Of a stretch of 64,000 bases of DNA, positions 1,028 to 41,979 are shown one piece after another; the stretch's first letter is position 1; the number at the start of each line of letters is the position of its first letter. The DNA is from Dehalococcoidia bacterium (lineage in GTDB: Bacteria; Chloroflexota; Dehalococcoidia; GIF9; AB-539-J10), in the NCBI GenBank assembly GCA_040766535.1, contig JAXGQG010000010.1, positions 2,491 to 66,490 on the forward strand, given 5' to 3'. A model generated the notes under the pieces. That model had not been told where the DNA came from. It saw nothing but the letters and a program-made list of their open reading frames with translations, and made no database searches. A program made the translations under genes and the position numbers.

Positions 1028-1377
1028 TGGTGGAGGCGGGGGAGGGTTGAACTCCCCGTCCAGAAAAGGGTTGCCAGAATGTGCTACAGGCTTAGTCGGT
1101 CGCCAATTCGTCGCATGACCATCGTCCACCGACCGAGTCAGGCCACGCCATCCAGCTTGTCTTATCCAGGTCTCGCCGGCCCAAACCCGGAGCACCCCGG
1201 CATTCTCACGCCCACTCCCGACCCACCGGGGAGAGATCGGGGTGGACGCGCGACCTTAACTAGGCCGCGACGGGAACTAGATCGTTCTCGTTTATTGTTT
1301 GCCACCTGTTTATTGAGGTGGATGGCACCTCAGCCTGCAATCCTGTAGGCCCTCCCCTGTCGAACCCACGCGCCCCC
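1028..1377 (-). ncRNA. ssrA: tmRNA (SsrA), about 350 nt
   Basis: The minus strand reads 5' GGGGGCGCGTGGGTTCGACAGGGG ... GGACGGGGAGTTCAACCCTCCCCCGCCTCCACCA 3'. The acceptor stem GGGGGCG/CGCCTCC includes the G3:U wobble used as the alanine identity element. There is a T-arm GGGGAGTTCAACCCTCCCC and a terminal CCA. An internal tag frame ends ...GAT CTA GTT CCC GTC GCG GCC TAG. The gene lies 37 nt downstream of smpB on the same strand. Confidence 0.88.
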
Positions 1378-26154: not shown

Positions 26155-26796
26155 ATGGCGTGGGATCGTGCAGCCCTTGCGAATGCCGTGCAGAACGGAG
26201 ATGATGATGAAACGCTGGCAATGGTGAAGACCGCCCTTGCCGACGGTGTCCCAGCAATGGAGATACTGGACGGGGCGCTTGTGCCGGGTATCCAGCAGTT
26301 GGGCGAGTTGTTCAAGGATGGAGAAGTCTTCCTGCCCGAAGTACTCATCGCCTGCCGGGCTATGGACCGCGGAGTGGCCGAACTCAAGCCGTTTCTCACG
26401 ACGGGTGATGTACACCGCAAAGGGAAGATCATCATCGGGACAGTGGAGGGAGACCTCCACGACATCGGCAAGAACATCGTCCGACTCATGCTCGAATGCG
26501 GCGGATTCGAGGTAATCGACCTGGGTGTGGACGTACCGGCCAGCAGATTCGTGGACGCGGTCAAGGAACACTCGCCGGACATCGTCGCGATGTCCGCGCT
26601 GCTCACGATCACCATGACCAATATGCCGGAGGTCATCGCCGCTCTGGAACAGGCGGGGCTCAGGAAGAGCGTCAATGTCATGATCGGTGGAGCACCCATC
26701 ACACGCGAATACGCGGATCAGATCGGCGCCGAGGGCTTCGCCGAGGACTGCGCCTCCGCAGTTCAGGAAGCCGAGAGGCTCGCTATCCCGCGGTAG
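26155..26796 (+). CDS. corrinoid (cobalamin-binding) methyl-carrier protein
   Basis: B12-binding cap helices followed by GDLHDIGKNIV (DxHxxG), MSALLT (SxL) and MIGGAPI (GG). ATG at 26155 is preceded by AGGAGG. Confidence 0.88.
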   Translation: MAWDRAALANAVQNGDDDETLAMVKTALADGVPAMEILDGALVPGIQQLGELFKDGEVFLPEVLIACRAMDRGVAELKPFLTTGDVHRKGKIIIGTVEGDLHDIGKNIVRLMLECGGFEVIDLGVDVPASRFVDAVKEHSPDIVAMSALLTITMTNMPEVIAALEQAGLRKSVNVMIGGAPITREYADQIGAEGFAEDCASAVQEAERLAIPR

Positions 26797-26822
26797 CAGC
26801 GCGCCCACGACGGAGGCACAGC

Positions 26823-28007
26823 ATGACAGACTCATTGAGACAGCGGTTTCTGGACATATGCAGATTCAAACGCACGGGCGACCTTTGCCTCCTTGCGCCA
26901 TGGTTGAACGACTTCTGGATGGAGACTCCAGACGTGTGGGTGAGCCAGGGGGCGCCCGCCGAGTTGGCCGACCCCCGCACGTTGCGCGAGTATTTCGAGT
27001 TCGAGCACATCCGCGTTCTGAGAGAGGTCCAGACGGGCCTGTTCATGGACAAACGCCTCGACGTGCTTGGCAGGAACTACGTGTACGCCATCCCACCCAT
27101 CATTCCCACCTACGAGATCCGGATGCTGGGTGAGGACGAGCACACACTGTCCCTCGTCAACGAAGGCGGCCAGGTTGTGCGCATCGACAAGCGTGACCCC
27201 CAGAAGATGCCGATGTACCTTGACCATCCGGTCAAGGATTGGGACACATGGAAGGAGTACAAGAAGCGCCTTGATCCCTCTTCCCCCGAACGGTTCCCGG
27301 CAGACTGGCAGGCGTACGCCGCCAGGATGAACGCGAAGGATGAGCCCCTGCTGCTCAACGTGGGCAGCTTCTTCGGCTTCCTACGCGAATGGATGGGCCT
27401 CGAGCCATTCCTCTTTGCTCTACACGACGAACCCGCGCTGATAGAAGACATGATGGACACGCTCTGTGAGATGGAGTCCGTCTGCATACACCGCGCCATG
27501 GAGAGCGTGCGCGTGGATGCCGCCATGTTCTGGGAGGATATGGCCTTCAAGACGGGACCACTACTCTCACCGAAGATGTTCCGGCAGTTCATGATGCCGC
27601 GCTACAAGGTCATCACGGACCTTCTCCGGTCGAAGGGCGTCGACATCATCTTCGTCGATAGCGACGGGGCGCTGAACCAGCTCATTCCGTTGTGGCTCGA
27701 GAGCGGTGTGAACTTCTTCTGGCCGCTCGAGTGCGCAGCCGGAAACGATGCGGTTGAACTGCGCAAGAAGTACGGCAAGGACGCCATCTTGGGTGGCAAC
27801 ATCGACAAGCGGGCACTTCTCAAGGGGAAGGACGTCATCCGGCAGGAGGTCATGTCCAAGGTGCCCTATCTGCTGGAGACGGGCGGCTACTTCCCGTCCA
27901 TCGACCACTTCGTGCCACCGGATGTGCCGTTCGAGAACTACGTTTACTTCATCAACACTCTGCGCGAGGTAGCCGGGCTGCCACCGCTTAAGGGGCGCTC
28001 CGGCTAG
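26823..28007 (+). CDS. uroporphyrinogen decarboxylase (URO-D) family protein, probable corrinoid-dependent methyltransferase
   Basis: About 394 aa. URO-D/MtaA-like C-terminal half (AAMFWEDMAFKTGPLLSPKMFRQFMMPRY, IIFVDSDGA, GGNIDKRALL). ATG at 26823 is preceded by GGAGG. The 109 upstream codons of the ORF overlap the corrinoid gene and look like an artefact. Confidence 0.75.
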   Translation: MTDSLRQRFLDICRFKRTGDLCLLAPWLNDFWMETPDVWVSQGAPAELADPRTLREYFEFEHIRVLREVQTGLFMDKRLDVLGRNYVYAIPPIIPTYEIRMLGEDEHTLSLVNEGGQVVRIDKRDPQKMPMYLDHPVKDWDTWKEYKKRLDPSSPERFPADWQAYAARMNAKDEPLLLNVGSFFGFLREWMGLEPFLFALHDEPALIEDMMDTLCEMESVCIHRAMESVRVDAAMFWEDMAFKTGPLLSPKMFRQFMMPRYKVITDLLRSKGVDIIFVDSDGALNQLIPLWLESGVNFFWPLECAAGNDAVELRKKYGKDAILGGNIDKRALLKGKDVIRQEVMSKVPYLLETGGYFPSIDHFVPPDVPFENYVYFINTLREVAGLPPLKGRSG

Positions 28008-28887
28008 ACGGGAAGCGCTTCAGCGCCTCCAGCATCGCATACATGCGCGCGTAGGCATCCGCTGCCCGGTGGTCGAGCTTCTCGAGTTCGCTGCCAAGAG
28101 CGGCAAACTCATCGATCATGGCTGTCCGGCTGCCCAGCTCCACAAGGCCCTTGAAGTGTGCAGCGCTCTCCTCCAACCGACGCGCTACATCCGCCGCATC
28201 GGGCAGACCAGCCAGAAGCGTTCCGTACAGCTCGCTGCCTTCACACAACATGCTCTCCGTCAAGGACACGAGTACTTCCAGAGACGTCCCGCTCACTTCT
28301 CGCGCCAGGGCGAAGTGTCCCGTCCCGAGCGCCGTACGGGCAACCAGCGCCACAACGAGGGCCGGCAGACCCAATACCACCGCCATCACCTCATCGTGGG
28401 TCTCAGGGTCCATCTGCACCACATGCGCACCGAATGGTTCCAGATACGCCTTCACCTTCGTGGCCAGCGCGGAGGCAGCTTCCCCGACCGGTGTCAGTAT
28501 GACGTTGTGCCCCCGCCAACCATCTGCTCCCGGCCCAAACATGGGATGCACGCCGAGAAAGCAGGCGTGAGGCATGTGTTCATCGGCGGCGCGCTGGGGC
28601 GCGGTCTTGACGGAACTGACGTCGATAACCGCCTGGTTTGGCTGAACGTGTGGGGCAAGATCGCGCAACACCGACTCCACCGCGTCCAGCGGTACGGAGA
28701 TCATCGCCAGGTCCGCCTCACAAACCTCCTGGTAGCCTCCGACCATCGCACCTGGCATCGTGCGAGCGATCCGTTCCAGAGCTTCGCGACGCCTGCCCAC
28801 AAGCACCAGTTCGTGACCCTGTCTATGCAGGAAAGCAGCAAACCAGCTCCCCATCTTGCCAGATGCACCGATGATCGCGATCTTCAT
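27988..28887 (-). CDS. tyrA: prephenate dehydrogenase
   Basis: MKIAIIGASGKMGSWFA Rossmann N-terminus with a PDH domain. The ATG at 28887 overlaps the pheA TGA (ATGA). Confidence 0.88.
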   Translation of the reverse strand: MKIAIIGASGKMGSWFAAFLHRQGHELVLVGRRREALERIARTMPGAMVGGYQEVCEADLAMISVPLDAVESVLRDLAPHVQPNQAVIDVSSVKTAPQRAADEHMPHACFLGVHPMFGPGADGWRGHNVILTPVGEAASALATKVKAYLEPFGAHVVQMDPETHDEVMAVVLGLPALVVALVARTALGTGHFALAREVSGTSLEVLVSLTESMLCEGSELYGTLLAGLPDAADVARRLEESAAHFKGLVELGSRTAMIDEFAALGSELEKLDHRAADAYARMYAMLEALKRFPSSRSAP

Positions 28888-29969
28888 AGCGTCTTCCACA
28901 CCGGCTTCGCTCTCGGATACGAGCCTAGAACGCGCAGGAAGAGGCAGTAATGCCGCACGCTCTCAAGCGCCTCAGCGAACTGCGGATCGAGGCTGTGTCC
29001 CTCAAAGTCCAGATAGAAGTTGTACTCCCATGGTTTCTGGCGGGTGGGCCGAGACTCGATCTTCGTGAGATTCACTCCCCTCTCGGCGAGCACCCGGAGC
29101 GCCGAATACAGTGCTCCAGGCTCGTGCCGCACCGAGAACACCACCGAGGTCTTATCCATGCCGCTCGGGGGCACATCGCGCCTCGAAAGCACGAAGAACC
29201 GCGTGTAGTTGTTCTTGCTGTCCTCGATGCCCGTGGCCACCACATGCATCCCATACAGTTCCGCGGCCCGCGCGCTCGCTACCGCAGCCACGTCCATCGC
29301 CCCTTGCTCGCTCACCATCTTCACACTCCCCGCCGTGTCATACGCCGGAATGAGTTCACAACCGAGGTGCGACAGAAACTCCCGGCACTGGCCAAGCGCC
29401 TGTGGGTGCGAGTAGACGCGCCGGACATCGCCGAGCGCTACTCCCGGCCGTGCTATCAGGCAGTGCACGACTCGAAGGGCGGTCTCACCACACACGCGAA
29501 CATGATGTTCCAGGAAGAGATCGTATACCCTGCTGATGCTGCCTTCGGATGAGTTCTCCACCGGGACAATGCCGAAGCTGGTGAGTTCATCCTCAACCGC
29601 GGCGAACACACCGTCGAAGCTCTCCACAGGACAGGTGGTAGCAGACCGGCCAAAGAACTCGAGCGCAGCCTGTTCGCTGAAGGCGCCAGGTTCGCCCTGG
29701 AAGGCCACGGTTGTATGTTGAACCGCCCTGGCAACTTCGATGATCCTCTCATACACTCGCTCAAGGTCGCGTTCATCCACGTCCTGCTCGACCCCCAGCG
29801 CCCGCACCTTGTCGAGTACCTTTCTCTCTCTCGCGACATCGAGCACCGGCAGTCCGGCGGCCTGCTTCGCCTCTCCGATCTCCCGGGCAATCTTCAACCG
29901 CTCAGCCAATAGGCGCACAAGCTCCCGGTCAGTCGCATCGATTCTTGCTCGCAGATCATCTATGGACAT
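28884..29969 (-). CDS. pheA: bifunctional chorismate mutase / prephenate dehydratase (P-protein) with ACT domain
   Basis: CM_2 N-terminus (LRARIDATDRELVRLLAERLKIAREIG), PDT domain (VAFQGEPGAFSE, YTRF), and C-terminal ACT (SRPTRQKPWEYNFYLDFEGH). ATG at 29969 is preceded by GAGGGTGA. Confidence 0.92.
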   Translation of the reverse strand: MSIDDLRARIDATDRELVRLLAERLKIAREIGEAKQAAGLPVLDVARERKVLDKVRALGVEQDVDERDLERVYERIIEVARAVQHTTVAFQGEPGAFSEQAALEFFGRSATTCPVESFDGVFAAVEDELTSFGIVPVENSSEGSISRVYDLFLEHHVRVCGETALRVVHCLIARPGVALGDVRRVYSHPQALGQCREFLSHLGCELIPAYDTAGSVKMVSEQGAMDVAAVASARAAELYGMHVVATGIEDSKNNYTRFFVLSRRDVPPSGMDKTSVVFSVRHEPGALYSALRVLAERGVNLTKIESRPTRQKPWEYNFYLDFEGHSLDPQFAEALESVRHYCLFLRVLGSYPRAKPVWKTL

Positions 29970-31057
29970 GTCATCACCCTCGGTATCAGCCCACTTTGCA
30001 GAACCAGGTCGCACAATGCCGCCGCGACCATCGCCTCAACCACCACCACCGCACGAGGCACGATGCACGCATCGTGACGGCCACTCACCGCCAGTTCAGT
30101 ATCAGTCCCCTTGTCGACGTCCACCGTTCGCTGCCTGATGGCGATGGACGGAGTGGGTTTGATCGCCACGCGCAGCACCAGCGGCATTCCGTTCGTCAAT
30201 CCTCCCAGTACTCCGCCCGAGTGATTCGTGAGCGTGACCACCTGGCCATCACGCACTGCAAAGGCATCGTTTGCCTCGGAGCCCTTCATACCCGTCAGTG
30301 CGAACCCATCGCCGAACTCGACTCCCTTAACAGCAGGTATCGAGAACGCAGCTCGCGCAATCTCGCTTTCCACGCTCGCGAACACCGGTTCCCCGATGCC
30401 CGGCGGCAACCCGCGTGCCACACACTCGATCACCCCTCCAACGCTGTCGCCCCGCTTCCTCGCAGCCTCGATCACCTCAACCATCCGTACGCCACTGGGC
30501 TCATCGCAGCAGGAAACCAGCGTGGCGCTGCGGCGTTCGCGTATCAGTTCGGGAGCACACGGGGGTGCAAGGACACCACCAATCGCCACTGTGTGGGCGT
30601 CAACTTCCGTGCCGATGTTGTGCAGTATGACCCGAGCGACGGCCCCAGCCATTACAAAGCCAGCGGTGATACGTCCCGAGAAGCGGCCGCCGCCACGCGG
30701 GTCGCCATAGTTCCCGTACTTGATGCGCGCAGGATAGTCAGCATGGCCGGGCCGCGGCGTACGCATGAAATCGGTGTACGCCGTGGCATCTGTATTCGTG
30801 TTCTCAACCATCAGGCAGATGGGAGCCCCGGTTGTCACGCCATCGCGGAGGCCGGCGAGGATACGAACCTCATCCGGCTCGCGTCTCGGGGTTGCGCCCG
30901 GCTGGCCGGCGGCGCTGCGCCGCGCAAGGTCCCGTTGCAGCTCAGCCACATCCAGCCGCAACCCCGCCGGGCATCCATCGATCACCACTCCCTCACACGG
31001 CCCGTGGCTCTCACCGAAGCTCGTGATCCGAAAGAGTGTCCCGAGAGTACTACTCAT
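29960..31057 (-). CDS. aroC: chorismate synthase
   Basis: MSSTLGTLFRITSFGESHGP, RPGHADY, GGGRFSGR. Confidence 0.95.
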   Translation of the reverse strand: MSSTLGTLFRITSFGESHGPCEGVVIDGCPAGLRLDVAELQRDLARRSAAGQPGATPRREPDEVRILAGLRDGVTTGAPICLMVENTNTDATAYTDFMRTPRPGHADYPARIKYGNYGDPRGGGRFSGRITAGFVMAGAVARVILHNIGTEVDAHTVAIGGVLAPPCAPELIRERRSATLVSCCDEPSGVRMVEVIEAARKRGDSVGGVIECVARGLPPGIGEPVFASVESEIARAAFSIPAVKGVEFGDGFALTGMKGSEANDAFAVRDGQVVTLTNHSGGVLGGLTNGMPLVLRVAIKPTPSIAIRQRTVDVDKGTDTELAVSGRHDACIVPRAVVVVEAMVAAALCDLVLQSGLIPRVMTCP

Positions 31058-32312
31058 GCAGCATCACCTCCACGCCAAGGCCGGCAAGCGTCTCCCAGAA
31101 CGCCGGGTATGTCTTCGTCACGCTTTCAGCCGCGTCAACCGTCACGTCACCAGTCACCGCTCCGAGGATGCCTAAGGCCATCGCGATGCGGTGATCTCCG
31201 GCGGATGATACTGCTCCACCGTGCAGCACACCTCCACATACTCGCATCCGGTCACTCTCTGCGTCCACCTCCACGCCGAGACAAGCGAGTCCTTCGGCCA
31301 TGGCGGCCACGCGATCCGACTCCTTATCACGGGCTCTGGCTATCCCGGTGAGCGTCGTTACTCCGTTTGCCGCGGCTCCAAGAGCACACGCCACAGGCAG
31401 CAGGTCGATGCAGCCAGAGACATCATAGTCAAACGGACAGAGCTTTGCTCGCGTAACCACCACTTCGCCCCCAGCAGCATTCACGGACGCCCCGGCCTTC
31501 TTCAATATGTCGAGTACCGCAACGTCGGCCTGCAGACTCTCAGCCGAAAGCTCCCGGACGCGAACCTCTCCAGCAAGCGCCCCCAGTGCCAGCACAGCGG
31601 CGGCGCCGGACCAGTCTCCTTCCACCGCAAAGCGCGTCGCGCGATAGCCACCCTCCGCCACATGGAACGTGCGGCCACAATCGAGCAGCGCAACCTCGGC
31701 GCCAAAACAGCGCATGCACTTCAGCGTCATCTCGACATACTGCTCCGAGACGATCGGCGAGGACAACTGTAGCGTCAAACCACCCGGCACGCGCGGCCCG
31801 CATAGAAGCAGCGCGGAGACAAACTGTGAACTGACGTCCCCCTGCAGCACGACATGGCCGCACGGGTGGTTCGCCCCGCGAACAGTGAGTATGCCGGAGC
31901 CGGCATCGAAGTCGCATTCGGCCCCCATCTGCCGTATACCCCGCAGCAATGGCTCCAAAGGTCGTCGCGCCAGCGACGGGGCACAACGCAGTACCGTCAC
32001 GCCGGGAACGGTCGCTGCGACCGCGGCAAGAAAGCGGAACGTGGCCGCCGATTCGCGGCACCACAGCGGGGATACCGCAGCGTGAAGGCCCTCACCTCGA
32101 ACGGTTACGCCACCGTTCACATCCTTGACGACAGCACCAAGCCCCGCAATCGATTCGAAGACAGCTGTGGCGTCGTCGGACTCGAGTGGCGCCTCAATCA
32201 GGCTTTCACCCCTCGCCAGTGCTGCACAGACTGCAGCGCGTATGGTGTAGCTCTTTGAACCTGGCACACGTACGGAGCCATGTACGACGCTCCGTGCGAC
32301 GGTGGCCCTCAC
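31050..32312 (-). CDS. aroA: 3-phosphoshikimate 1-carboxyvinyltransferase (EPSP synthase)
   Basis: 420 aa (VPGSKSYTIRA, DHRIAMA). Confidence 0.94.
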   Translation of the reverse strand: MRATVARSVVHGSVRVPGSKSYTIRAAVCAALARGESLIEAPLESDDATAVFESIAGLGAVVKDVNGGVTVRGEGLHAAVSPLWCRESAATFRFLAAVAATVPGVTVLRCAPSLARRPLEPLLRGIRQMGAECDFDAGSGILTVRGANHPCGHVVLQGDVSSQFVSALLLCGPRVPGGLTLQLSSPIVSEQYVEMTLKCMRCFGAEVALLDCGRTFHVAEGGYRATRFAVEGDWSGAAAVLALGALAGEVRVRELSAESLQADVAVLDILKKAGASVNAAGGEVVVTRAKLCPFDYDVSGCIDLLPVACALGAAANGVTTLTGIARARDKESDRVAAMAEGLACLGVEVDAESDRMRVCGGVLHGGAVSSAGDHRIAMALGILGAVTGDVTVDAAESVTKTYPAFWETLAGLGVEVMLHE

Positions 32313-32827
32313 AGCTGTCCCACTCGCTTCTGAATCTTGCGCACGATCTGTTCCACCAGGAGCCCATCCGTATCCACTATGATATCCGCCGCCGCCTCAT
32401 ACACCGGCCGGCGGCGCGCCATCAGTTCGGTCACCTGTTGCTCCCTGTCCGTTCCCTGCAACAACGGTCTGACGGCTGACTGTGGGCCAAGCCGTCGCAG
32501 TACTGTCTCCACCGACGCATCCAGGTACACCAGCACTGACGTCTCCTTCAGCGCGGTGACGTTCTCTGCACGCAGCACCACACCCCCCCCGCACGCAATC
32601 ACGGCACCGTGCGCCCGTGCCGCCTCCCTCACAGCCACAGCTTCAAGGTCTCGGAAGTGGGCCTCCCCGAAACGCGCGAAGATGTCAGCGATTGACATAC
32701 CCGCGTTGTGCTCAACAAGTGCATCGGTCTCGATATACGTCTTCCGCAGCCGCACAGATAGTGCCCGTCCCACGGTGGACTTGCCCGCCCCCATGAACCC
32801 CACCAGGGCGATGTTACTCCGTTTCAC
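32309..32827 (-). CDS. aroK: shikimate kinase
   Basis: NIALVGFMGAGKSTVG P-loop. GTG at 32827 is preceded by GGAGAG. The upstream part of the ORF overlaps aroE. Confidence 0.9.
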   Translation of the reverse strand: MKRSNIALVGFMGAGKSTVGRALSVRLRKTYIETDALVEHNAGMSIADIFARFGEAHFRDLEAVAVREAARAHGAVIACGGGVVLRAENVTALKETSVLVYLDASVETVLRRLGPQSAVRPLLQGTDREQQVTELMARRRPVYEAAADIIVDTDGLLVEQIVRKIQKRVGQL

Positions 32828-33677
32828 GATCCAACTCTCCGAGCACTGCGGCGCGCATGACGTCCACGGGCGCCTCGACGCCGGTCCAGAGCTCGAACGC
32901 AGCCGCGCCCTGGCGCACAAGCATTTCAACGCCGTCTACGGTGACGGCTCCGAGTGCGGCCGTGGTGCGCAGCAGCATCGTCTCGCGAGGGTTGTACACG
33001 GTATCACACACGGGCAGGTCACGACGCAGCACCTCACGGGGACATGGCATCTCCATCTCCATCGGGTGCATGCCAACGCTTGTCGTGTTCACGAGCAGTG
33101 CCGCATCGCTCAACCGGGAGACCATCACGTCCGAAGACAACAGACCATGCAGAACGTGCGCTCCCGAAGCCGTGGCGACGTCGCGCGCGAGAGAGGCAGC
33201 GCGCTCAACGTTGCGATTCAACACGGTGACTCGCGCACCCGCCCCTACCAGGGCAAAGACTACTGCCCTTGCTGCACCTCCCGCTCCAAGCACAACCACG
33301 TTCATTCCTCTGGCGTCGATGCCGTGCGACCGCAATCCGTGCAGAAAGCCCTGTGCGTCCGTGTTGTAGCCGCGCAAACAACCGGAGTCGTTCACCACGG
33401 TGTTCACTGCCCCGATTCGGGCGGCCTGCTCGTCGACCTCGTCGAGGCTACGCATTATGTCGATTTTGTGCGGTACGGTAACGTTCAGGCCGCGAATACC
33501 GAGTGCCCGCATGGCCTGAGCGCAGGATGCAGCCGTTCCTCGTGGAGCACGCCAGGCCACGTAGACGTAGTCAAGGACTGCCTTGTCAAATGCTGCGTTC
33601 TGCATGACCGGAGAGAGCGTGTGGGCAACAGGGTCTCCGATGATCCCGCATAGGCGTGTTGTACCGGTTATCCGCAT
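32814..33677 (-). CDS. aroE: shikimate 5-dehydrogenase
   Basis: GIIGDPVAHTLSPVMQNAAF, NVTVPHK, GYNTD, VLGAGGAARA. Confidence 0.94.
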   Translation of the reverse strand: MRITGTTRLCGIIGDPVAHTLSPVMQNAAFDKAVLDYVYVAWRAPRGTAASCAQAMRALGIRGLNVTVPHKIDIMRSLDEVDEQAARIGAVNTVVNDSGCLRGYNTDAQGFLHGLRSHGIDARGMNVVVLGAGGAARAVVFALVGAGARVTVLNRNVERAASLARDVATASGAHVLHGLLSSDVMVSRLSDAALLVNTTSVGMHPMEMEMPCPREVLRRDLPVCDTVYNPRETMLLRTTAALGAVTVDGVEMLVRQGAAAFELWTGVEAPVDVMRAAVLGELDRETE

Positions 33678-33678
33678 G

Positions 33679-34335
33679 TCACAACGATCCTATCGCCGCG
33701 TATATTGTGCGCAACGTGCCAACGGTCAACTGGCCCGGCGCCGACTCGTGGCCGTCGGAAAGCGACGCATAAGTGAACATGGCGCCAGCGAGAGGCGCCA
33801 GTACTCTGCTGGTCATGCCGAGGGGGCCCATGGCAAATGTGACGATGCCCTGTGACCTGAATCGATGCGCCAGGCTGACCACCGTAGCGGCATCTCGTGC
33901 ATCGCGCGCCATCGTGACAACCTTGCAGATGTCCGCGCCAAGACCGCGCTGCAGTTGCACCACCTGTGCCAGGGACTCTTCATCCCCGGTCCCAACGAAA
34001 TCATGGTGTGACACGATGACGCGCAGCCTGCCATTGAGTCGTCTCATGAACGACACGGAGTCGGGAGCGCACATCTCGATATCCACCATCGCCGCGCCCA
34101 GATCCACCGCGTGATGAAGCACCGCGAGCCGCTCATCTTCGCTGCCAGTCCACGCCCCTCCCTGGGAAGGCAGCCGGTTACAGGCTATCCAGGGACGGGA
34201 CAGCCCCCCAACGACCTGTGGCCAGTGCTCACCGATAAGGTCGATGCGCACCTCGTACAGCGAAACGTGGTCGCGAACGGCTTGCGCAAGGGCGACATCG
34301 CCGGCGGACGTGATGCAGGCACAGATGTCAGGCAA
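33679..34335 (-). CDS. aroD: 3-dehydroquinate dehydratase, type I
   Basis: 218 aa type I DHQase-like sequence (YEVRIDL, SHHDF, ICKVVTMA), positioned between aroB and aroE. Confidence 0.85.
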   Translation of the reverse strand: MPDICACITSAGDVALAQAVRDHVSLYEVRIDLIGEHWPQVVGGLSRPWIACNRLPSQGGAWTGSEDERLAVLHHAVDLGAAMVDIEMCAPDSVSFMRRLNGRLRVIVSHHDFVGTGDEESLAQVVQLQRGLGADICKVVTMARDARDAATVVSLAHRFRSQGIVTFAMGPLGMTSRVLAPLAGAMFTYASLSDGHESAPGQLTVGTLRTIYAAIGSL

Positions 34336-35419
34336 CGGCGTATGACCTCATCACCGCTTCTCTCACCAGGTCCATGGGCACGTTGCTGTGGATGGCAGCG
34401 TCTCCGATGCGGCTCAGCAGTGCGAAACGCAGACGGCCTTTCAATACCTTCTTGTCGCGAGTCATGGCGGCGAGGACATCCTCCGCGTTGATGCAATCTG
34501 GAACCGCAACCGGCAATCCCGCCTCTATCAGCAGGCGCCGCTGCCGCTCCATCTCGCTGGCAGGCGCAACGCCCAGACTGGAAGCGATGAAGCCGGCAGC
34601 CACCATCCCGATCGCAACGCATTCGCCATGGCACAAGGAGAAGCCGGACGCCGACTCAACGCCATGGCCAACAGTATGACCGTAGTTCAGTATGTTCCGA
34701 AGGCCCGTGTCCTTCTCATCCTCTTCAACGACCGCGGCCTTGATACGGGCCGTCACCGACACGATGTGCTCCAACGCATCGGCATCTCTCCCCAGCACCC
34801 GGCCGATATCCTGTTCCAGGTAGCAGAAGAACCCCTCGTCACGGATGGCCGCGCTCTTGATGACTTCGGCAAGTCCATTCCGGAACTCCCGTTCGGGCAG
34901 AAACGCCAGGCATGACGTGTCTGCGATGATAGCGGCCGGCTGGTGAAAAGCGCCGATGTTGTTCTTGAGCCGCCCGTGGTTCACCGCCACCTTGCCCCCG
35001 ATACTGCTATCCACCTGCGCCAGAAGCGTCGTCGGCACATGCACCAGCGGCAAACCGCGGAAGTATGTGGCCGCCACAAATCCCGTGAGGTCGCCGACAA
35101 CGCCTCCGCCCACGGCCAGTAGCGGAGTTGCCCGCTCTGCGCCAAGCTCGTTGAGCCGCCCGTACATCATGGCGGCCGTGTCAAGTGACTTCTGCTCCTC
35201 GCCCGGAGGTATGACCACGAAGTGAGGGGTGAATCCGGACGCCACCAGGGATCGCTCGACCGCATCACCGAACAGCCCGGCTACGTTCTCGTCGGTCACC
35301 ACGACGGCGGTGCCGGAGAAGCCGAGCCGACTCAGTTCCTCGCCGATGAGCCTGAGGGCGCCCGCCCCCACGCTCATACGGTAGAGGTTGCCTGAGCACC
35401 ATACATGAGAAGTTCTCAT
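34328..35419 (-). CDS. aroB: 3-dehydroquinate synthase
   Basis: GGGVVGDLTGFVAATYFRGL, VPTTLLAQVDSSIGGK, NYGHTVGH. Confidence 0.94.
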   Translation of the reverse strand: MRTSHVWCSGNLYRMSVGAGALRLIGEELSRLGFSGTAVVVTDENVAGLFGDAVERSLVASGFTPHFVVIPPGEEQKSLDTAAMMYGRLNELGAERATPLLAVGGGVVGDLTGFVAATYFRGLPLVHVPTTLLAQVDSSIGGKVAVNHGRLKNNIGAFHQPAAIIADTSCLAFLPEREFRNGLAEVIKSAAIRDEGFFCYLEQDIGRVLGRDADALEHIVSVTARIKAAVVEEDEKDTGLRNILNYGHTVGHGVESASGFSLCHGECVAIGMVAAGFIASSLGVAPASEMERQRRLLIEAGLPVAVPDCINAEDVLAAMTRDKKVLKGRLRFALLSRIGDAAIHSNVPMDLVREAVMRSYAVA

Positions 35420-35421
35420 CG

Positions 35422-36477
35422 TCAGTTCTTCTTGACCAGGTCACGAAGTCGACGGCAGGCATCGATGATCTCTTTGAGTTCGTCGGGCGTCACCATCTGT
35501 GGTCCGTCGACGAGGGCCTCGGAGGGATCGTAGTGGGCTTCGATCATGAGGCCATCGGCGCCGGCCGCCACCGCCGCGCAGCTCATCGAGAATATCAGGT
35601 CGCGCCTTCCCGTGCCATGGCTGGGATCAACAATGACCGGCAGATACGTCTCGTTATGGATTACGGGCACGGCGGCGAGATCAAGCGTGTACCGGGTGAA
35701 GCTCTTTCCCTTGCCCATCGGCACAATCCCGCGCTCACACAGGATGATGTCCTTGTTTCCCTCTGCGGCGATGTACTCACTGAAGGAGAGCAACTCCTCG
35801 ATGCTGGCGCCGAAATGGCGCTTGAGCAGCACCGGCTTATGCTGCCGGGCCACCGCGACCAGCAGATCCTGGTCATACATGTTCCGGGCGCCGATGTGCA
35901 TGATGTCCACGTACTTCGCGACCAGTTCCACCATGGATTCGCCACGAACCTCGGTGACCACCGGCATATCGAAGGCATCGCCGGCTTCTCTCATCCAGTG
36001 GAGCGCCTCCTCAGCCTCCTCCACCCCCGATGCCCCCAAGCCCTGGAAGGCGTGGACCGAGCTTCTGGGCTTGAAGACACCTCCACGGAGTACGTGGGCG
36101 CCTGCCTTCTTCACCTCCTCCGCAATGCGCATGAGTTGTTTGCGGCTCTCCACTGCACAGGGACCGGCGATAATGACCGGCTCGCCGTTCCCAAGGCGGA
36201 CGTTTCCGATCTTGACCGTCTTGTGGGCGCCCGGCTCACCGAAGAACCGCGCGTAGTCGCGACTGATGAGCTTGTACGGCGCCTCAACCATATTTGCCTC
36301 TTTGACCCCGGGCAACGTGGCAATACGATCGAAGGCGAGCTTGCGTTCGTCGCCAACAGGCCCGATAACGGTAATGTACTCACCTCTCGAGATATCGGCG
36401 CGCAACCCGCTCGCCTCGATCTCGGCCACCACCCTCCGGATGTCCTCCTCAGTCGCGTCCGTCTTCATGATGATCAT
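35422..36477 (-). CDS. aroF: DAHP synthase, type I-beta with N-terminal ferredoxin-like/ACT-type regulatory domain
   Basis: About 75-aa N-terminal domain (TEEDIRRVVAEIEASGLRADISRGEYITVIG), then a KDSA/AroG-I-beta barrel (IIAGPCAVES, GADGLMIEAH). Confidence 0.92.
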   Translation of the reverse strand: MIIMKTDATEEDIRRVVAEIEASGLRADISRGEYITVIGPVGDERKLAFDRIATLPGVKEANMVEAPYKLISRDYARFFGEPGAHKTVKIGNVRLGNGEPVIIAGPCAVESRKQLMRIAEEVKKAGAHVLRGGVFKPRSSVHAFQGLGASGVEEAEEALHWMREAGDAFDMPVVTEVRGESMVELVAKYVDIMHIGARNMYDQDLLVAVARQHKPVLLKRHFGASIEELLSFSEYIAAEGNKDIILCERGIVPMGKGKSFTRYTLDLAAVPVIHNETYLPVIVDPSHGTGRRDLIFSMSCAAVAAGADGLMIEAHYDPSEALVDGPQMVTPDELKEIIDACRRLRDLVKKN

Positions 36478-36536
36478 GGTGTCTCCTTCTCTCTCGCTCG
36501 CTGCCTCGTTGTACTTTCTCTGGCCGCAGTCATCAC

Positions 36537-36572
36537 AAAAAGAAAGGACCCTCCCACCGGGAGGGTCCTTTC
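36537..36572 (-). terminator. intrinsic terminator (attenuator) in the aro operon leader
   Basis: Minus strand: GAAAGGACCCTCCC ggt GGGAGGGTCCTTTC followed by TTTTT. It lies between the leader ORF stop (36595) and the DAHP synthase ATG (36477). Confidence 0.8.
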
Positions 36573-36594
36573 TTCTTTGGCGCTTACTGTTGAA

Positions 36595-36675
36595 CTACAC
36601 GACGTGACCGCTCCCGGGCGTAACGCAGGGATAAAAGTAATACCAATACGCGCCGAACGACCGGAAGCTACTCAT
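36595..36675 (-). CDS. aro operon leader peptide MSSFRSFGAYWYYFYPCVTPGSGHVV (26 codons)
   Basis: ATG AGT AGC TTC CGG TCG TTC GGC GCG TAT TGG TAT TAC TTT TAT CCC TGC GTT ACG CCC GGG AGC GGT CAC GTC GTG TAG. Eight of 26 codons are Phe/Tyr/Trp, six of them consecutive. It sits between the promoter and the terminator. No strong SD. Confidence 0.65.
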   Translation of the reverse strand: MSSFRSFGAYWYYFYPCVTPGSGHVV

Positions 36676-36704
36676 ATCAACACATGTACGTCGAGATGAA
36701 GGCG

Positions 36705-36734
36705 ATTGTAGGGACATGCGAATGCAGTTGTCAA
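36705..36734 (-). promoter_or_regulatory. sigma-70-type promoter of the aro operon
   Basis: Minus strand: TTGACA (36734..36729), 18-nt spacer, TACAAT (36710..36705). Confidence 0.75.
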
Positions 36735-36801
36735 GTTGCGCTGCTCCATTGCGGCGAGACACGTTCCTTGACGCACTCGTGCCAATGGCATAGGCTATTC
36801 A

Positions 36802-37800
36802 ATGCCTGTCGCTGAGTGGCTGCGCAGCTTCATAAGCGCGGCCCGATGCGCCTTCTCATCACGTACTGCAATGGATTCAGCACGCGAACTAGCCAGGTAC
36901 ACGCCTGACGCGCCAACACTCCTCACTCTCGGGGTTTTCGATGGAGTGCATGCAGGACATCTTTCTCTCGTTCGGACGCTCCAGCAGAAGGCGGTAGAGC
37001 GCGAACTCCTTCCCGGGGTGGTCACCTTCTCACCACATCCAGCGGAGGTCATCCGCCCCGGCGAGCAAGTGCCACTGCTCATGAGCGTGGAGGAACGCGT
37101 TCAGTTCATCAGAGACCTCGGCATATCTCTCGTGGTGCCAATGACGTTCACACGGGAACTGAGCTGCCACACACCGGAACGCTTCGTCCGGCTCCTTATC
37201 GAACACCTCCGCATGAAGGGGCTCATACTGGGTCCTGACTTCAGCCTTGGACGTGACCGCGAGGGAACGTGCGCCACGCTGGAGGCACTGGGCACGCGTC
37301 TCGGTTTCACGGTGGAAAGCGTACCGCCGTTCACGATGGATGGGCAGGTAGTGAGCAGCACCGCCATCAGGAGGGCCCTGGCAACAGGCGACGTGGTAGC
37401 GGCCAGGCGAATGCTGGGACGCCCGTACACTTTCACCGGTCCGATAACTACCACGAGCCGGCGAGGCGCTGCGCTCCTGGGCGTTCCGACAGCCAATCTT
37501 GAGGTCACCCTCGGACGCGCGTTGCCCCGCAACGGGGTTTATGCTACCATCGCCAGAATCCCGAACGGTCAGTTCGACTCCGTAACGAACATCGGCCACC
37601 GCCCGACATTTGGCCACGGCGAACGAGTCGTGGAAACCCACATACTCGATTTCGACGGGCACATCTATGGGGCTACGATGACCGTCGAGTTCATCTCCAG
37701 GATCAGGGATGAGGCCACTTTTCCGGATCCCGGTGCACTGGCAGTCCAGATAGAACGCGACGTAGAAGCCGCACGCAGAATTCTCCGGGAGCATGTATGA
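36802..37800 (+). CDS. ribF: bifunctional riboflavin kinase / FAD synthetase
   Basis: LTLGVFDGVHAGH, a C-terminal riboflavin kinase domain (GVYATIARIPNGQ...VTNIGHRPTF, VEFISRIRDE). The start is either ATG 36802 (5 nt after a TAGGCT -10 box, so possibly leaderless) or ATG 36871. Confidence 0.9.
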   Translation: MPVAEWLRSFISAARCAFSSRTAMDSARELARYTPDAPTLLTLGVFDGVHAGHLSLVRTLQQKAVERELLPGVVTFSPHPAEVIRPGEQVPLLMSVEERVQFIRDLGISLVVPMTFTRELSCHTPERFVRLLIEHLRMKGLILGPDFSLGRDREGTCATLEALGTRLGFTVESVPPFTMDGQVVSSTAIRRALATGDVVAARRMLGRPYTFTGPITTTSRRGAALLGVPTANLEVTLGRALPRNGVYATIARIPNGQFDSVTNIGHRPTFGHGERVVETHILDFDGHIYGATMTVEFISRIRDEATFPDPGALAVQIERDVEAARRILREHV

Positions 37801-39041
37801 GCGATAGTGCAAAGGTAACCCTACTCCGCGATATCCCCAGAGCCAGACAGGACTTCCTGCTGCGGCGCGGCGTCGCAGAGATCATCCCTGAAGCGGAGTT
37901 CATCTCTCTGCTCAACAGCGGCACTCCGGCACGCCTGAAGGAAGGATTCGACCCCAGTTCGCCGGACATACACCTCGGGCACGTCGTCGGACTGCGCAAG
38001 CTGCGTCAGTTGCAGGACCTGGGCCACAAGGTCATCCTGATAGTCGGCAACTGGACGGCTCGCATCGGCGATCCGAGCGGCCAGTCTGCCACGCGGCCCA
38101 TGTTGACCGAGGAACAGATCGAACACAACGCCAAGACATACATGGACCAGTTCTTCAAGGTGGTGGACAGAGACCGCACCGAGGTACGCTGGCAGACCGA
38201 GTGGTTCTCGAAGTTCACGCTGGACACGGTTATCCGCCTGACCGCGCGCTTCACGGTCGCTCAGATTCTGGCACGCGAGGATTTCAGTAAACGCTACAGC
38301 TCGGGCAGTCCAATATCTCTCTGCGAGACGCTCTATCCCCTGCTTCAGGCGTACGACTCGTACGCCATCGACTCCGATGTGGAGTTCGGCGGGACGGATC
38401 AGAAGTTCAACTGCTTGCTGGGGCGTGAGCTGCAGCAGATGCTCGGGCAGAACCCCCAACAGGTGTTCTTCACTCCCATTCTGGTGGGCACCGATGGTAA
38501 GAGCAAGATGAGCAAGAGCCTCGGCAATTACATCGGCGTTGCCGAGCCCCCCGAGCAGATGTACGGCAAAGTTATGTCACTTGATGACAGCCTCATTCTC
38601 GACTACTTCGAGCTTGTCACCGACATCCCGGACGAAGAGCTGGCTGAGAAGAGGGCCGACTTTGCCGCCGGCAGGGCCAATCCCATGAACGAGAAGAAGA
38701 GCCTTGCCAGGGAGATCGTCTCGCAGTTCCACGGGAAAGAGGCGGCCGAGGCGGCCGACCAGCACTTCACAAGAGTACATCAGCAGCATGAGGTGCCGGA
38801 GGAGATGCCCGAGGTCTCCGTGGAAGGCGTCGCCGAGGGTCAGGGTGAGGTTCGAATCGACCTTTCACGACCCCTTGTCGCCGGCGGATTCGTCAAGAGC
38901 GCGAGCGAACTGAAGCGTCTCGTTGCCCAGAACGCCGTCGAGGTCGACGGCAGCAAGGTGGACGAGCTGAACGTACTGGTCCACGATGGTTCAGTTGTCA
39001 AAGTCGGCAGGCGTACATTCGTGCGCATCCGGGTGAAGTGA
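37797..39041 (+). CDS. tyrS: tyrosyl-tRNA synthetase
   Basis: Class I HIGH (PDIHLGH) and KMSKS motifs, with a C-terminal S4 domain. The ATG overlaps the ribF stop (ATGA). Confidence 0.93.
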   Translation: MSDSAKVTLLRDIPRARQDFLLRRGVAEIIPEAEFISLLNSGTPARLKEGFDPSSPDIHLGHVVGLRKLRQLQDLGHKVILIVGNWTARIGDPSGQSATRPMLTEEQIEHNAKTYMDQFFKVVDRDRTEVRWQTEWFSKFTLDTVIRLTARFTVAQILAREDFSKRYSSGSPISLCETLYPLLQAYDSYAIDSDVEFGGTDQKFNCLLGRELQQMLGQNPQQVFFTPILVGTDGKSKMSKSLGNYIGVAEPPEQMYGKVMSLDDSLILDYFELVTDIPDEELAEKRADFAAGRANPMNEKKSLAREIVSQFHGKEAAEAADQHFTRVHQQHEVPEEMPEVSVEGVAEGQGEVRIDLSRPLVAGGFVKSASELKRLVAQNAVEVDGSKVDELNVLVHDGSVVKVGRRTFVRIRVK

Positions 39042-39098
39042 GAGCCCTGTGGCGCTAGAATTAGGGCGTGTTCTCACGTGCGTAGCGAGGGGGTGAAC

Positions 39099-40661
<1,563 letters not shown>

Positions 40662-40674
40662 GCGTGCGCGCTTC

Positions 40675-41979
40675 TCAGTCGAGGTCGTAGGCAACGAGCC
40701 CGGTCGGCGCCTTCGGGTAAAAGTACGTCGACTTCCGTGGCATACGTTCCATCTGGTCGGAGATCTTCTTGACCAGTCGTGGATGAGCGGGGGCAAGCAG
40801 AAAGGCCATCTGCGCCTCGCCGGATTGCACACTGCGTACAACCGCATCGAGATCGGGACTGTAGCTCACTCCCTCTCCGTCAGGGTTGATGCCCAGTGCT
40901 CTCGCCATGACCACGTGGTTGAGGATGCTGACATTGAACGTCCGGTACTCCGAAGAGTGCTCGCCGGGTACAAACGACCCGAGATCCAGTCCTGGCCTCG
41001 GCCTCAGTTCCGCCACGAGTCCGTCACGCAGCCCCACCACGGCCATCAACGCCATCTCTCCCACCGGGGCGCTACGTGCCAGCGCCGTCTCGATCGGTAC
41101 GAAATCGAGCGTGAAGTACTCCGAGAGCTTCTCCTCGATGTGCGCCAGTTCGGGCAAGCTGAATCCTCGTAGCACACGGTACACTGGGGATATGAAGAGA
41201 CCTGGATCATGGAACGCCACCAGGGTCATCGGGATGTAGTCATACGCGCGAATGCCACCTCCGCTCCCAGCCTCGGCTGCTCTGCGCTCAGCCTGATAGA
41301 CGAGCCCCGTCTCATAGCGATGGTGTCCGTCCGCGATGTAGATGGACTCACGCTCAAGCGCCTCTGAGATACTGGTCAGCGCCTGACTGTCGCGCACTGC
41401 CCAGAAGCGATGCTCATCGATCTCTTCTCTGACCTCGATCGGAGCGGCGCTCTTCACCGTCGCGTCGATCAGCGCAGCGATCTCACTGTCGGCATCCTCG
41501 TACAGGCCGAGCGGATAGCTGAAACTTGTCCGGCACGCACGCATCAGCTCAAGGCGGTCCTGTTTGGCCTTGGTGCCGGTGAGCTCGTGCGGATACACTC
41601 CCTGATACCAGGGCCGCAGCAACACCGCGGCGATCAGCCCCCGCCGCACATGGCTCTTCCCACGGAACACAAACGAGTGGTCATGCACATACATGGCCGG
41701 ACTGGCCTCAGGGACGAGTATTCCAGCATCGCGCCACCGCTTGTACGTGCGTCCCGCCGTCTCATACCGCACCGTCTCATCAACGTCGCCGTCTCCAGGA
41801 AGCGGATGCTCGAGCCGGATCATGTTGTACCGGCTCTTCAGGTAGAGCAGACGCTGCTCCTCAACGCTGATGATGTCGTACGGAGGGCAGAGTAGCGGCG
41901 CAAGGTCGCCGGCACGGTCCGGGTTGTAACGGATCCCCGCAAACGGCTTCACGCTCGGGGCGCGATGACTTTGTGGCAT
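40675..41979 (-). CDS. DUF1015 family protein
   Basis: VKPFAGIRYNP...PPYDIIS and YIADGHHRY are typical of DUF1015. ATG at 41979 is preceded by AGGTG. Confidence 0.85.
   Translation of the reverse strand: MPQSHRAPSVKPFAGIRYNPDRAGDLAPLLCPPYDIISVEEQRLLYLKSRYNMIRLEHPLPGDGDVDETVRYETAGRTYKRWRDAGILVPEASPAMYVHDHSFVFRGKSHVRRGLIAAVLLRPWYQGVYPHELTGTKAKQDRLELMRACRTSFSYPLGLYEDADSEIAALIDATVKSAAPIEVREEIDEHRFWAVRDSQALTSISEALERESIYIADGHHRYETGLVYQAERRAAEAGSGGGIRAYDYIPMTLVAFHDPGLFISPVYRVLRGFSLPELAHIEEKLSEYFTLDFVPIETALARSAPVGEMALMAVVGLRDGLVAELRPRPGLDLGSFVPGEHSSEYRTFNVSILNHVVMARALGINPDGEGVSYSPDLDAVVRSVQSGEAQMAFLLAPAHPRLVKKISDQMERMPRKSTYFYPKAPTGLVAYDLD

Follow-up and report, generated by a model that had tools for sequence, protein, structure and literature searches.

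A predicted ribosome-mediated attenuator with a mixed aromatic leader peptide upstream of the aro-pheA-tyrA operon in Dehalococcoidia

Introduction

The classical attenuators trpL, pheL and hisL depend on ribosomes that stall at regulatory codons of a leader peptide, while in Firmicutes the genes for aromatic amino acids are under T-box and TRAP control. Several leaders have been described or proposed upstream of aroF genes. For E. coli aroF-tyrA, control by an attenuator was put forward as a hypothesis in 1980. In Corynebacterium glutamicum, the leader peptide aroR, which contains Phe-Tyr-Phe, precedes aroF and mediates attenuation via ribosome stalling (Mentz 2013, PMC4046766); as summarised in PMC11802643, limitation of Phe alone had an effect on it (Neshat 2014). 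In Acholeplasma, uORFC-13-1 is a predicted upstream open reading frame (uORF) before aroF, with a promoter, a start codon, a ribosome-binding site (RBS), U-rich Phe codons ("at least one phenylalanine") and an adjoining terminator; it has 24 representatives, found only in Acholeplasma and environmental sequences, and attenuation was proposed for it from comparative analysis (Brewer et al. 2021, PMC8632094). Here we analyse a leader of this kind in a 64,000-nucleotide stretch of a Dehalococcoidia bacterium (phylum Chloroflexota; contig JAXGQG010000010.1, positions 2,491 to 66,490; hereafter the window). The leader lies on the minus strand directly upstream of aroF, which encodes 3-deoxy-D-arabino-heptulosonate 7-phosphate (DAHP) synthase and is the first of nine genes, aroF to tyrA, for the synthesis of aromatic amino acids.

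Dehalococcoidia are largely uncultured, and members of Dehalococcoides are important for bioremediation. To our knowledge, almost nothing is known about gene regulation in this class. The searchable literature contained nothing on leader peptides or attenuation of this sort in Dehalococcoidia or Chloroflexi, and no aroF uORF appears in the main text of the Narunsky 2024 survey, which included D. mccartyi 195, or in the part of its supplement considered here. A model that read the letters of the window without database searches had proposed that one attenuator controls the whole aro supraoperon (hereafter the original prediction). The comparative analysis reported below supports this proposal: in about 75 Dehalococcoidia genomes the leader ORF, its terminator and the complementarity of the antiterminator are conserved and covary. 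We put the probability that the leader is a ribosome-mediated transcription attenuator of the trpL/pheL/hisL type, governing the nine-gene operon, at roughly 0.85.

Results

Anatomy of the leader

The leader is about 160 nt long, half of it taken up by an open reading frame (ORF). Its elements and the operon behind it are as follows.

36705..36734, minus strand: sigma-70-type promoter, with TTGACA at 36734..36729, an 18-nt spacer and TACAAT at 36710..36705; 11/12 match
36595..36675, minus strand: leader ORF of 26 codons plus stop, encoding MSSFRSFGAYWYYFYPCVTPGSGHVV
36666..36664 and 36657..36655, minus strand: extra Phe codons F4 and F7 of the leader ORF
36631..36648, minus strand: aromatic run Y10-W11-Y12-Y13-F14-Y15, UAU UGG UAU UAC UUU UAU
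36661..36668, minus strand: region 1, GCUUCCGG, codons 3-5, pairing with region 2 as anti-antiterminator
36606..36617, minus strand: region 2, CCGGGAG-C-GGUC, codons 20-24, with region 1 or region 3 as alternative partners
36557..36568, minus strand: region 3, GGACCCUCCCGG, the 5' arm of the terminator and two loop bases, complementary to region 2
36537..36577, minus strand: intrinsic terminator (regions 3:4), with a 14-bp G+C-rich core, the loop GGU and U5
27988..36477, minus strand: nine-gene operon aroF-aroB-aroD-aroE-aroK-aroA-aroC-pheA-tyrA, from Pfam assignments

The promoter, the ORF with its six-residue run, the hairpin and both alternative pairings had been named in the original prediction, and each was found again at its place. 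Within 27500..36800, nothing else on the minus strand resembles a promoter. With transcription predicted to start at about 36698, the 5' untranslated region would be about 22 nt long (36676..36698), and it contains no Shine-Dalgarno (SD) motif. Eight of the 26 codons of the ORF are aromatic, six of them consecutive. When all six frames of the window (61% GC) were searched, Y10-Y15 was the only stretch with at least six aromatic residues in eight, and such a stretch was present in one of 20 shuffled windows. No second aromatic leader, for example before trp genes, was found in this six-frame search.

The terminator hairpin begins 22 nt after the stop codon of the leader, and its U tract ends about 60 nt before aroF. 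Its core arms, 36572..36559 and 36555..36542, form the sequence GAAAGGACCCUCCC-GGU-GGGAGGGUCCUUUC (36572..36542), and the U5 tract follows at once at 36541..36537. Flanking A and U tracts lengthen the stem to 19 bp; a standard terminator scan missed the hairpin, the U tract being absorbed into the extended stem, and a custom finder was applied. Folded alone, the hairpin reaches −32.5 kcal/mol, and the leader region was more stable than 200/200 dinucleotide shuffles (z = −3.2). The flanking A and U tracts give the hairpin a near symmetry, and the plus-strand reading of the same segment is also terminator-like (36521..36577). Weak plus-strand Rfam matches (STnc320, Phe_leader, ftsZ-DE) are explained by this symmetry and were set aside as not meaningful.

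Alternative pairings and their folding

Two mutually exclusive pairings of region 2 are present in the leader. With region 1, region 2 forms the 1:2 helix, in which GCUUCCGG pairs with CCGGGAGC; this helix was seen in both the centroid and the minimum free energy folds of the window. With region 3, the CCGGGAG-C-GGUC segment forms the 2:3 helix, the putative antiterminator. The equilibrium fold of the full leader combines 1:2 with the terminator, at −68 kcal/mol. Equilibrium folding with a masked ribosome was uninformative for the full-length leader, where helices may span the ribosome, and partial transcripts were folded instead. It can be seen that a transcript stopping before region 4 folds into 2:3, so that the antiterminator forms before region 4 is made. 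A ribosome footprint at Y13 or Y15 leaves the 2:3 helix intact; with the centre of the footprint at the stop codon, no more than 5 bp of the helix remain. The original prediction had asked for a comparison of the two structures, which gave −32.5 kcal/mol for the terminator and about −24 kcal/mol for the antiterminator.

Conservation among Dehalococcoidia

To see whether the leader recurs, 80 genomic loci were collected whose AroF is 68-93% identical to that of the window. All are from metagenome-assembled genomes (MAGs) of Dehalococcoidia, and one is labelled Dehalococcoides mccartyi. The AroF homologues assign the window to a lineage of Dehalococcoidia without cultured members. A short ATG-started ORF with an aromatic run was found upstream of aroF in about 75 of the 80, as the original prediction would have it; the loci without one are mostly short of flanking sequence. 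These ORFs are typically 22-35 codons long and lie 90-270 nt before aroF, and the run begins after 8-12 codons. The hairpin is conserved likewise. A strict search for perfect stems found a hairpin with a U tract between leader ORF and aroF in 76/81 sequences, and in the five loci that this finder had scored as terminator-less, RNAfold detected a terminator with one mismatch. The core CCCUCC/GGAGGG of the terminator is constant across relatives, and the outer stem varies on both sides jointly (GGACCC/GGGUCC, GAGCCC/GGGCUC, GGGCUCUCC/GGAGAGCCC, AUCCUCCC/GGGAGGAU). RNAalifold also recovers the hairpin. In 67/71 loci the leader ORF is preceded by a TTGACA −35 element and a −10 box (TAnnnT) at a spacing of 16-18 nt, and in 66 related loci aroB-aroD follow downstream of aroF.

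In the MAG labelled Dehalococcoides mccartyi (L054), a Moco (molybdenum/tungsten cofactor) riboswitch is located at 2539..2658 (minus) of its locus, on the opposite strand and just upstream of the aro leader.

The leader ORF has a coding signature

Whether the leader ORF is translated was examined in an alignment of 23 sequences from the close clade of the window. All 10 gaps inside the ORF are of 3 or 6 nt; in contrast, between the stop codon and the terminator 3 of 53 gaps are multiples of three and 50 are not. The entropy at codon positions 1, 2 and 3 of the ORF is 0.86, 1.36 and 1.28, respectively, and T occupies position 1 in 68% of the cells at alignment codons 7-16, which hold the aromatic run. 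Among relatives TAT and TAC interchange, as do TTT and TTC, and Tyr, Phe and Trp trade places with the aromatic class retained and the order of residues within the run not conserved. An ATG start is present in all leader ORFs of the test set. By this comparative signature the leader ORF behaves as a translated one.

As to which amino acids are encoded, Tyr and Phe codons dominate in the relatives, matching the presence of tyrA and pheA within the operon. A Trp codon is usually single, and it is missing from 11 of 71 leaders (about 15%).

Complementarity between the ORF tail and the terminator

In the close clade, the 2:3 helix is paired in 97% of the cells; in controls with the partner shifted by 1-3 columns the share is 37-70%. 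On two independent occasions both strands of the helix have changed together, as C>U with G>A in L018 and as G>A with C>U in L011, and each time the altered base of the terminator is a loop base, on which the terminator itself puts no constraint.

The same pairing was then scored without an alignment in 71 loci, as a duplex of the ORF tail with the arm and loop of the terminator, against mononucleotide shuffles. These duplexes have a median energy of −19.5 kcal/mol and a median z of −3.35, with z < −2 in 86% of these phylogenetically related loci; cognate pairs reach −19.8 kcal/mol and non-cognate pairs −16.1. In 69/71 loci the ORF tail is complementary to two or more bases of the loop (mean 3.8 of 4.6), and the loop classes CCGG, CAAGC, AGGC and CCCCAGA match region 2 of their own or a closely similar class. 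Region 2 is always found 5-8 codons past the last aromatic codon, at or just beyond the 3' end of the ORF. In the close clade, 77.5% of the cells of the 1:2 helix are paired, including a double change of AU for GC. Together with the coding signature, the complementarity of regions 2 and 3 amounts to strong comparative evidence for ribosome-mediated attenuation.

Searches for known RNA families

Rfam 15 was searched with permissive E-values around the leader, and the entire window and 40 related loci were searched at gathering score; no T-box, riboswitch or leader family was found. For the T-box (RF00230), the segment 35900..37400 gave no match even with E <= 10 allowed, nor did the window as a whole at gathering score, and membership in this family was rejected for want of any covariance-model match. 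The Phe_leader model (RF01859) gave 21.4 bits (E = 1.1) on the correct strand, where the gathering score is 55; the score comes mostly from the terminator, membership was rejected, and no gathering-level match to this model occurred in the window or in 20 related loci.

The operon and its neighbourhood

The aroF product is a DAHP synthase with an N-terminal ferredoxin-like domain, and the pheA product combines chorismate mutase, prephenate dehydratase and an ACT domain (both from Pfam). The end products of the operon are Phe and Tyr, by way of pheA and tyrA, and chorismate for Trp. All nine genes abut or overlap their neighbours, and inside the operon neither a promoter-like site on the minus strand nor a convincing terminator was found, which bears out the earlier claim that the leader stands before one unit of control. 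The aroF gene starts with ATG at 36477 (minus), preceded by an AAGGAG SD motif. This motif lies about 45 nt downstream of the hairpin and is unpaired in the folds, so its sequestration by the hairpin was ruled out. A role of the hairpin as the 3' terminator of a preceding gene was ruled out too, because the element lies between aroF and the divergent ribF.

The genes ribF, tyrS and serA occupy 36802..41000 (plus), divergent from the aro operon. The leader with its Tyr codons is thus adjoined by tyrS, the gene for tyrosyl-tRNA synthetase, and the Rfam search of the window gave no T-box match at tyrS. At the other end, a plus-strand ORF of 503 aa with a C-terminal URO-D-like domain (26496..28007) is convergent with tyrA. 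The two share about 20 nt at the 3' end of tyrA, with no terminator-like site between them. Elsewhere in the window, a gene for transfer-messenger RNA was located at 1028..1377 (minus; Rfam 135 bits), with the tag peptide ENDLVPVAA according to ARAGORN.

Leaders of paralogous and distant aroF genes

Apart from the operon copy, the clade of the window carries another aroF, which stands alone and has no aroB behind it (L014-L025, L033). This gene was duplicated along with its leader, and region 2 and the terminator are the same as in the operon copy. The 11 MAGs that contain both copies were compared. Tyr codons number 2-5 in the operon leader (L001-L013 set) and 0-2 in the stand-alone leader, and Phe codons 2-4 and 3-4, respectively, with about one Trp codon in each copy. 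The difference between the copies gives p 0.002 in a paired Wilcoxon test, a value that overstates independence, as the difference probably goes back to one ancestral event. The codon mix suggests that each leader may be tuned to sense the amino acids that matter for its own paralogue.

At 50% clustering, below the representative P0121 of the own clade (68% identical), the next full-length AroF relatives are 39-52% identical. Their genes, of the FXD type, were studied at 73 metagenome loci (L081-L160), where a leader was scored as an ATG-started ORF of at most 60 aa upstream of aroF with at least five aromatic residues in eight. Such ORFs were found at 27/73 loci, compared with 0/73 in the reverse-complement control; examples are MKSIFVFAYYYYFTMDS, MFFTYYYFTMHA and MKKSFTLASYYYFYYYFTFSGSKVTL. 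A hairpin with a U tract follows the ORF in 25/27, the sequences are unrelated to the Dehalococcoidia leader, and in about half of these distant leaders the ORF tail pairs significantly with the arm of the terminator. None of the distant leaders matched an Rfam family. Aromatic leader attenuators of FXD-type DAHP synthase genes therefore seem, from these sequence comparisons, to be widespread and polyphyletic or repeatedly evolved. The distant loci with leaders include L086, L094, L105, L108, L109, L115, L143 and L155, and several are from human-gut metagenomes.

Discussion

Proposed mechanism

The anatomy, conservation, coding signature, pairing potential, covariation and spacing described above are observations on the sequences; stalling, termination and readthrough, as well as the amino acids that matter, we infer as follows. 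Transcription of the leader would start at the predicted TTGACA/TACAAT promoter, and a ribosome would translate the 26-codon ORF, whose coding nature is indicated by the comparative signature. When charged Tyr-, Phe- and possibly Trp-tRNA are ample, the ribosome should reach the stop codon and cover region 2, as the footprint geometry allows. With region 2 masked, the 3:4 hairpin and U5 would form and RNA polymerase would terminate about 60 nt before aroF. Under a shortage of charged aromatic tRNAs, the ribosome is expected, by what is known of trpL, pheL and hisL, to stall in Y10-Y15, where it would occupy or separate region 1 and leave region 2 free. Free region 2 may then capture the emerging 5' arm and loop of the terminator, a pairing backed by covariation; the terminator would be blocked and transcription would probably read through into aroF...tyrA. 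If the leader is left untranslated, 1:2 and 3:4 would form together and transcription would terminate.

The original prediction went further and had the attenuator read the charging of Phe-, Tyr- and Trp-tRNA together. Joint sensing of this sort is an inference: Tyr and Phe codons dominate, with one Trp codon in the leader and none in about 15% of relatives, and for aroR of C. glutamicum (Phe-Tyr-Phe) limitation of Phe alone had an effect.

Several points weigh against attenuation as proposed. The terminator outweighs the antiterminator (−32.5 vs about −24 kcal/mol), and the decision must therefore be kinetic, according to the folding model, as it is in trp, his and other classical attenuators. 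An SD-like motif precedes just 9/71 leader ORFs, that of the window not among them, compared with 70/71 aroF genes. Ten loci (L041, L043, L056, L059, L066, L068, L071, L076, L077 and L079) are even predicted to be leaderless, with the ATG of the leader exactly 7 nt past the −10 box. The window leader holds a single Trp codon. Regions 2 and 3 are near-invariant in the close clade, where formal covariation comes down to two events, and the duplex scores were obtained with mononucleotide shuffles on loci related by descent. The 1:2 helix is the least conserved element of the leader and is convincing in the close clade only; over all loci its median z is −1.8, with 45% below −2. Regarding the missing SD motif, the ilvB leader peptide of C. 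glutamicum, according to its citation in PMC4046766, is made without a ribosome-binding site (Morbach 2000).

Alternative explanations

Could the switch between terminator and antiterminator be set by something other than a ribosome, such as a metabolite, uncharged tRNA in the manner of a T-box, or a protein like TRAP or PyrR, with the aromatic ORF incidental or secondary? The usual lack of an SD motif and the poor conservation of the 5' structure (1:2) are in line with this, as is the T-box and TRAP control of aromatic pathways in Firmicutes. However, T-box and riboswitch families give no match even at E <= 10, the short leader contains no aptamer-sized structured domain, and what is strongly conserved upstream of region 2 is only the in-frame ATG, the open frame and the periodic aromatic run. 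The nucleotides of this run vary (TAT/TAC, TTT/TTC, Y/F/W), while its coding meaning is kept and indels remain in frame. A switch set by something other than a ribosome is rated as very improbable. The same low probability is given to the idea that translation of the leader works through protection from Rho or through general coupling, with the hairpin as a constitutive partial terminator or a stability element. Coupling and polarity effects are common in bacteria, and Rho sites are beyond detection by the methods applied; but this idea leaves unexplained the complementarity between loop and ORF tail in 69/71 loci with its covariation, as well as the constant distance of 5-8 codons from the run to region 2.

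The peptide itself, or the leader RNA of about 160 nt acting in trans, might be the functional product, instead of or besides attenuation in cis. The peptide has a conserved tail, which reads TPGSG in the close clade and WR..CAGEA or FTPG..PGG elsewhere, and trans-acting attenuator RNAs and peptides, rnTrpL and peTrpL of Sinorhizobium, have been reported. Yet the conserved tail coincides exactly with region 2 and is accounted for by the RNA pairing of that region; moreover, the order of the aromatic residues is unconserved, their class alone being kept, and the element always stands directly upstream of aroF. A micropeptide or trans-acting RNA is accordingly rated as very improbable. A chance meeting of an aromatic-rich ORF and a hairpin, for which nothing speaks except the general abundance of short ORFs, hardly needs to be entertained. 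The run is the single one in the 64-kb window, and of 20 windows that were shuffled one had such a run; about 75 related loci carry it too, and the distant aroF loci gave 27/73 on the sense strand vs 0/73 in the reverse-complement control. On these comparisons of sequences, chance co-occurrence can be regarded as already refuted by conservation.

Implications

With ribosome-mediated attenuation as the preferred reading, a wider idea may be put forward tentatively, and we think it somewhat more apt to fail than to hold: that leader codon composition gives DAHP synthase paralogues different amino acid specificities, and that aromatic leader attenuation has arisen repeatedly and is a widespread, mostly uncatalogued control of entry into the shikimate pathway, often from SD-less or leaderless mRNAs. 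E. coli has Tyr-, Phe- and Trp-specific DAHP synthase isoenzymes, and the leaders would, if the idea is true, be an RNA-level counterpart of them. Two questions are raised by the leaders, namely how an SD-less or leaderless leader is translated promptly enough to keep in step with RNA polymerase, and whether the mix of Tyr, Phe and Trp codons retunes the amino acid response of a DAHP synthase paralogue.

Judged by Rfam and the literature that could be searched, this would be the first extension of classical leader-peptide attenuation to Chloroflexota (Dehalococcoidia). The leader ORF is a conserved small ORF missed by gene callers, which matters for genome annotation, and the roughly 75 sequences compared here, in which a coding segment covaries with the terminator loop, could be curated as an RNA family. 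The mechanism itself would be unsurprising to specialists; its breadth, the covariation of loop and coding segment, the SD-less or leaderless leaders and the codon mix of the paralogues are noteworthy, and would in our view justify a brief comparative publication and the entry of the leaders as an RNA family.

Comparison with known systems

By description, the leader resembles aroR of C. glutamicum, which is also a mixed-aromatic leader peptide upstream of a DAHP synthase gene. It has three aromatic codons and no Trp, compared with 6-8 in the Dehalococcoidia leader, and the type of DAHP synthase, the operon content and the phylum all differ. The Acholeplasma uORFC-13-1, again compared by description only, shares a uORF and a terminator directly upstream of aroF, but it has an RBS, unlike the leader of the window and most of its Dehalococcoidia relatives. 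Both uORFC-13-1 and aroR are absent from Rfam 15. The T-box and TRAP systems of Firmicutes likewise report the sufficiency of aromatic amino acids by a terminator/antiterminator decision in a 5' leader, but their sensor is uncharged tRNA or a Trp-activated protein, whereas here a translating ribosome is proposed.

With E. coli pheL-pheA (RF01859) and the trpL/hisL class, the leader has in common an ORF rich in codons for the product, the 2:3 and 3:4 pairings, in the window and the close clade also 1:2, and a terminator before the first gene; pheA is also part of the operon downstream. The differences are that the run is mixed Tyr/Phe/Trp rather than of a single amino acid, that nine genes follow, covering the common pathway plus pheA and tyrA, that the leader ORF is SD-less and that the host belongs to the Chloroflexota, and there is no homology in sequence or structure to pheL. 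The suggestion in the original prediction that such a leader may be undescribed thus holds for the family, with no match in Rfam 15 and none in the searchable literature, but not for the kind, as aroF leader peptides, including a mixed Phe/Tyr one, have been published. Taken together, the family is new, in a new phylum and without an Rfam entry, while the proposed mechanism is the classical one of trpL, pheL and hisL and the kind is already known from aroR and uORFC-13-1.

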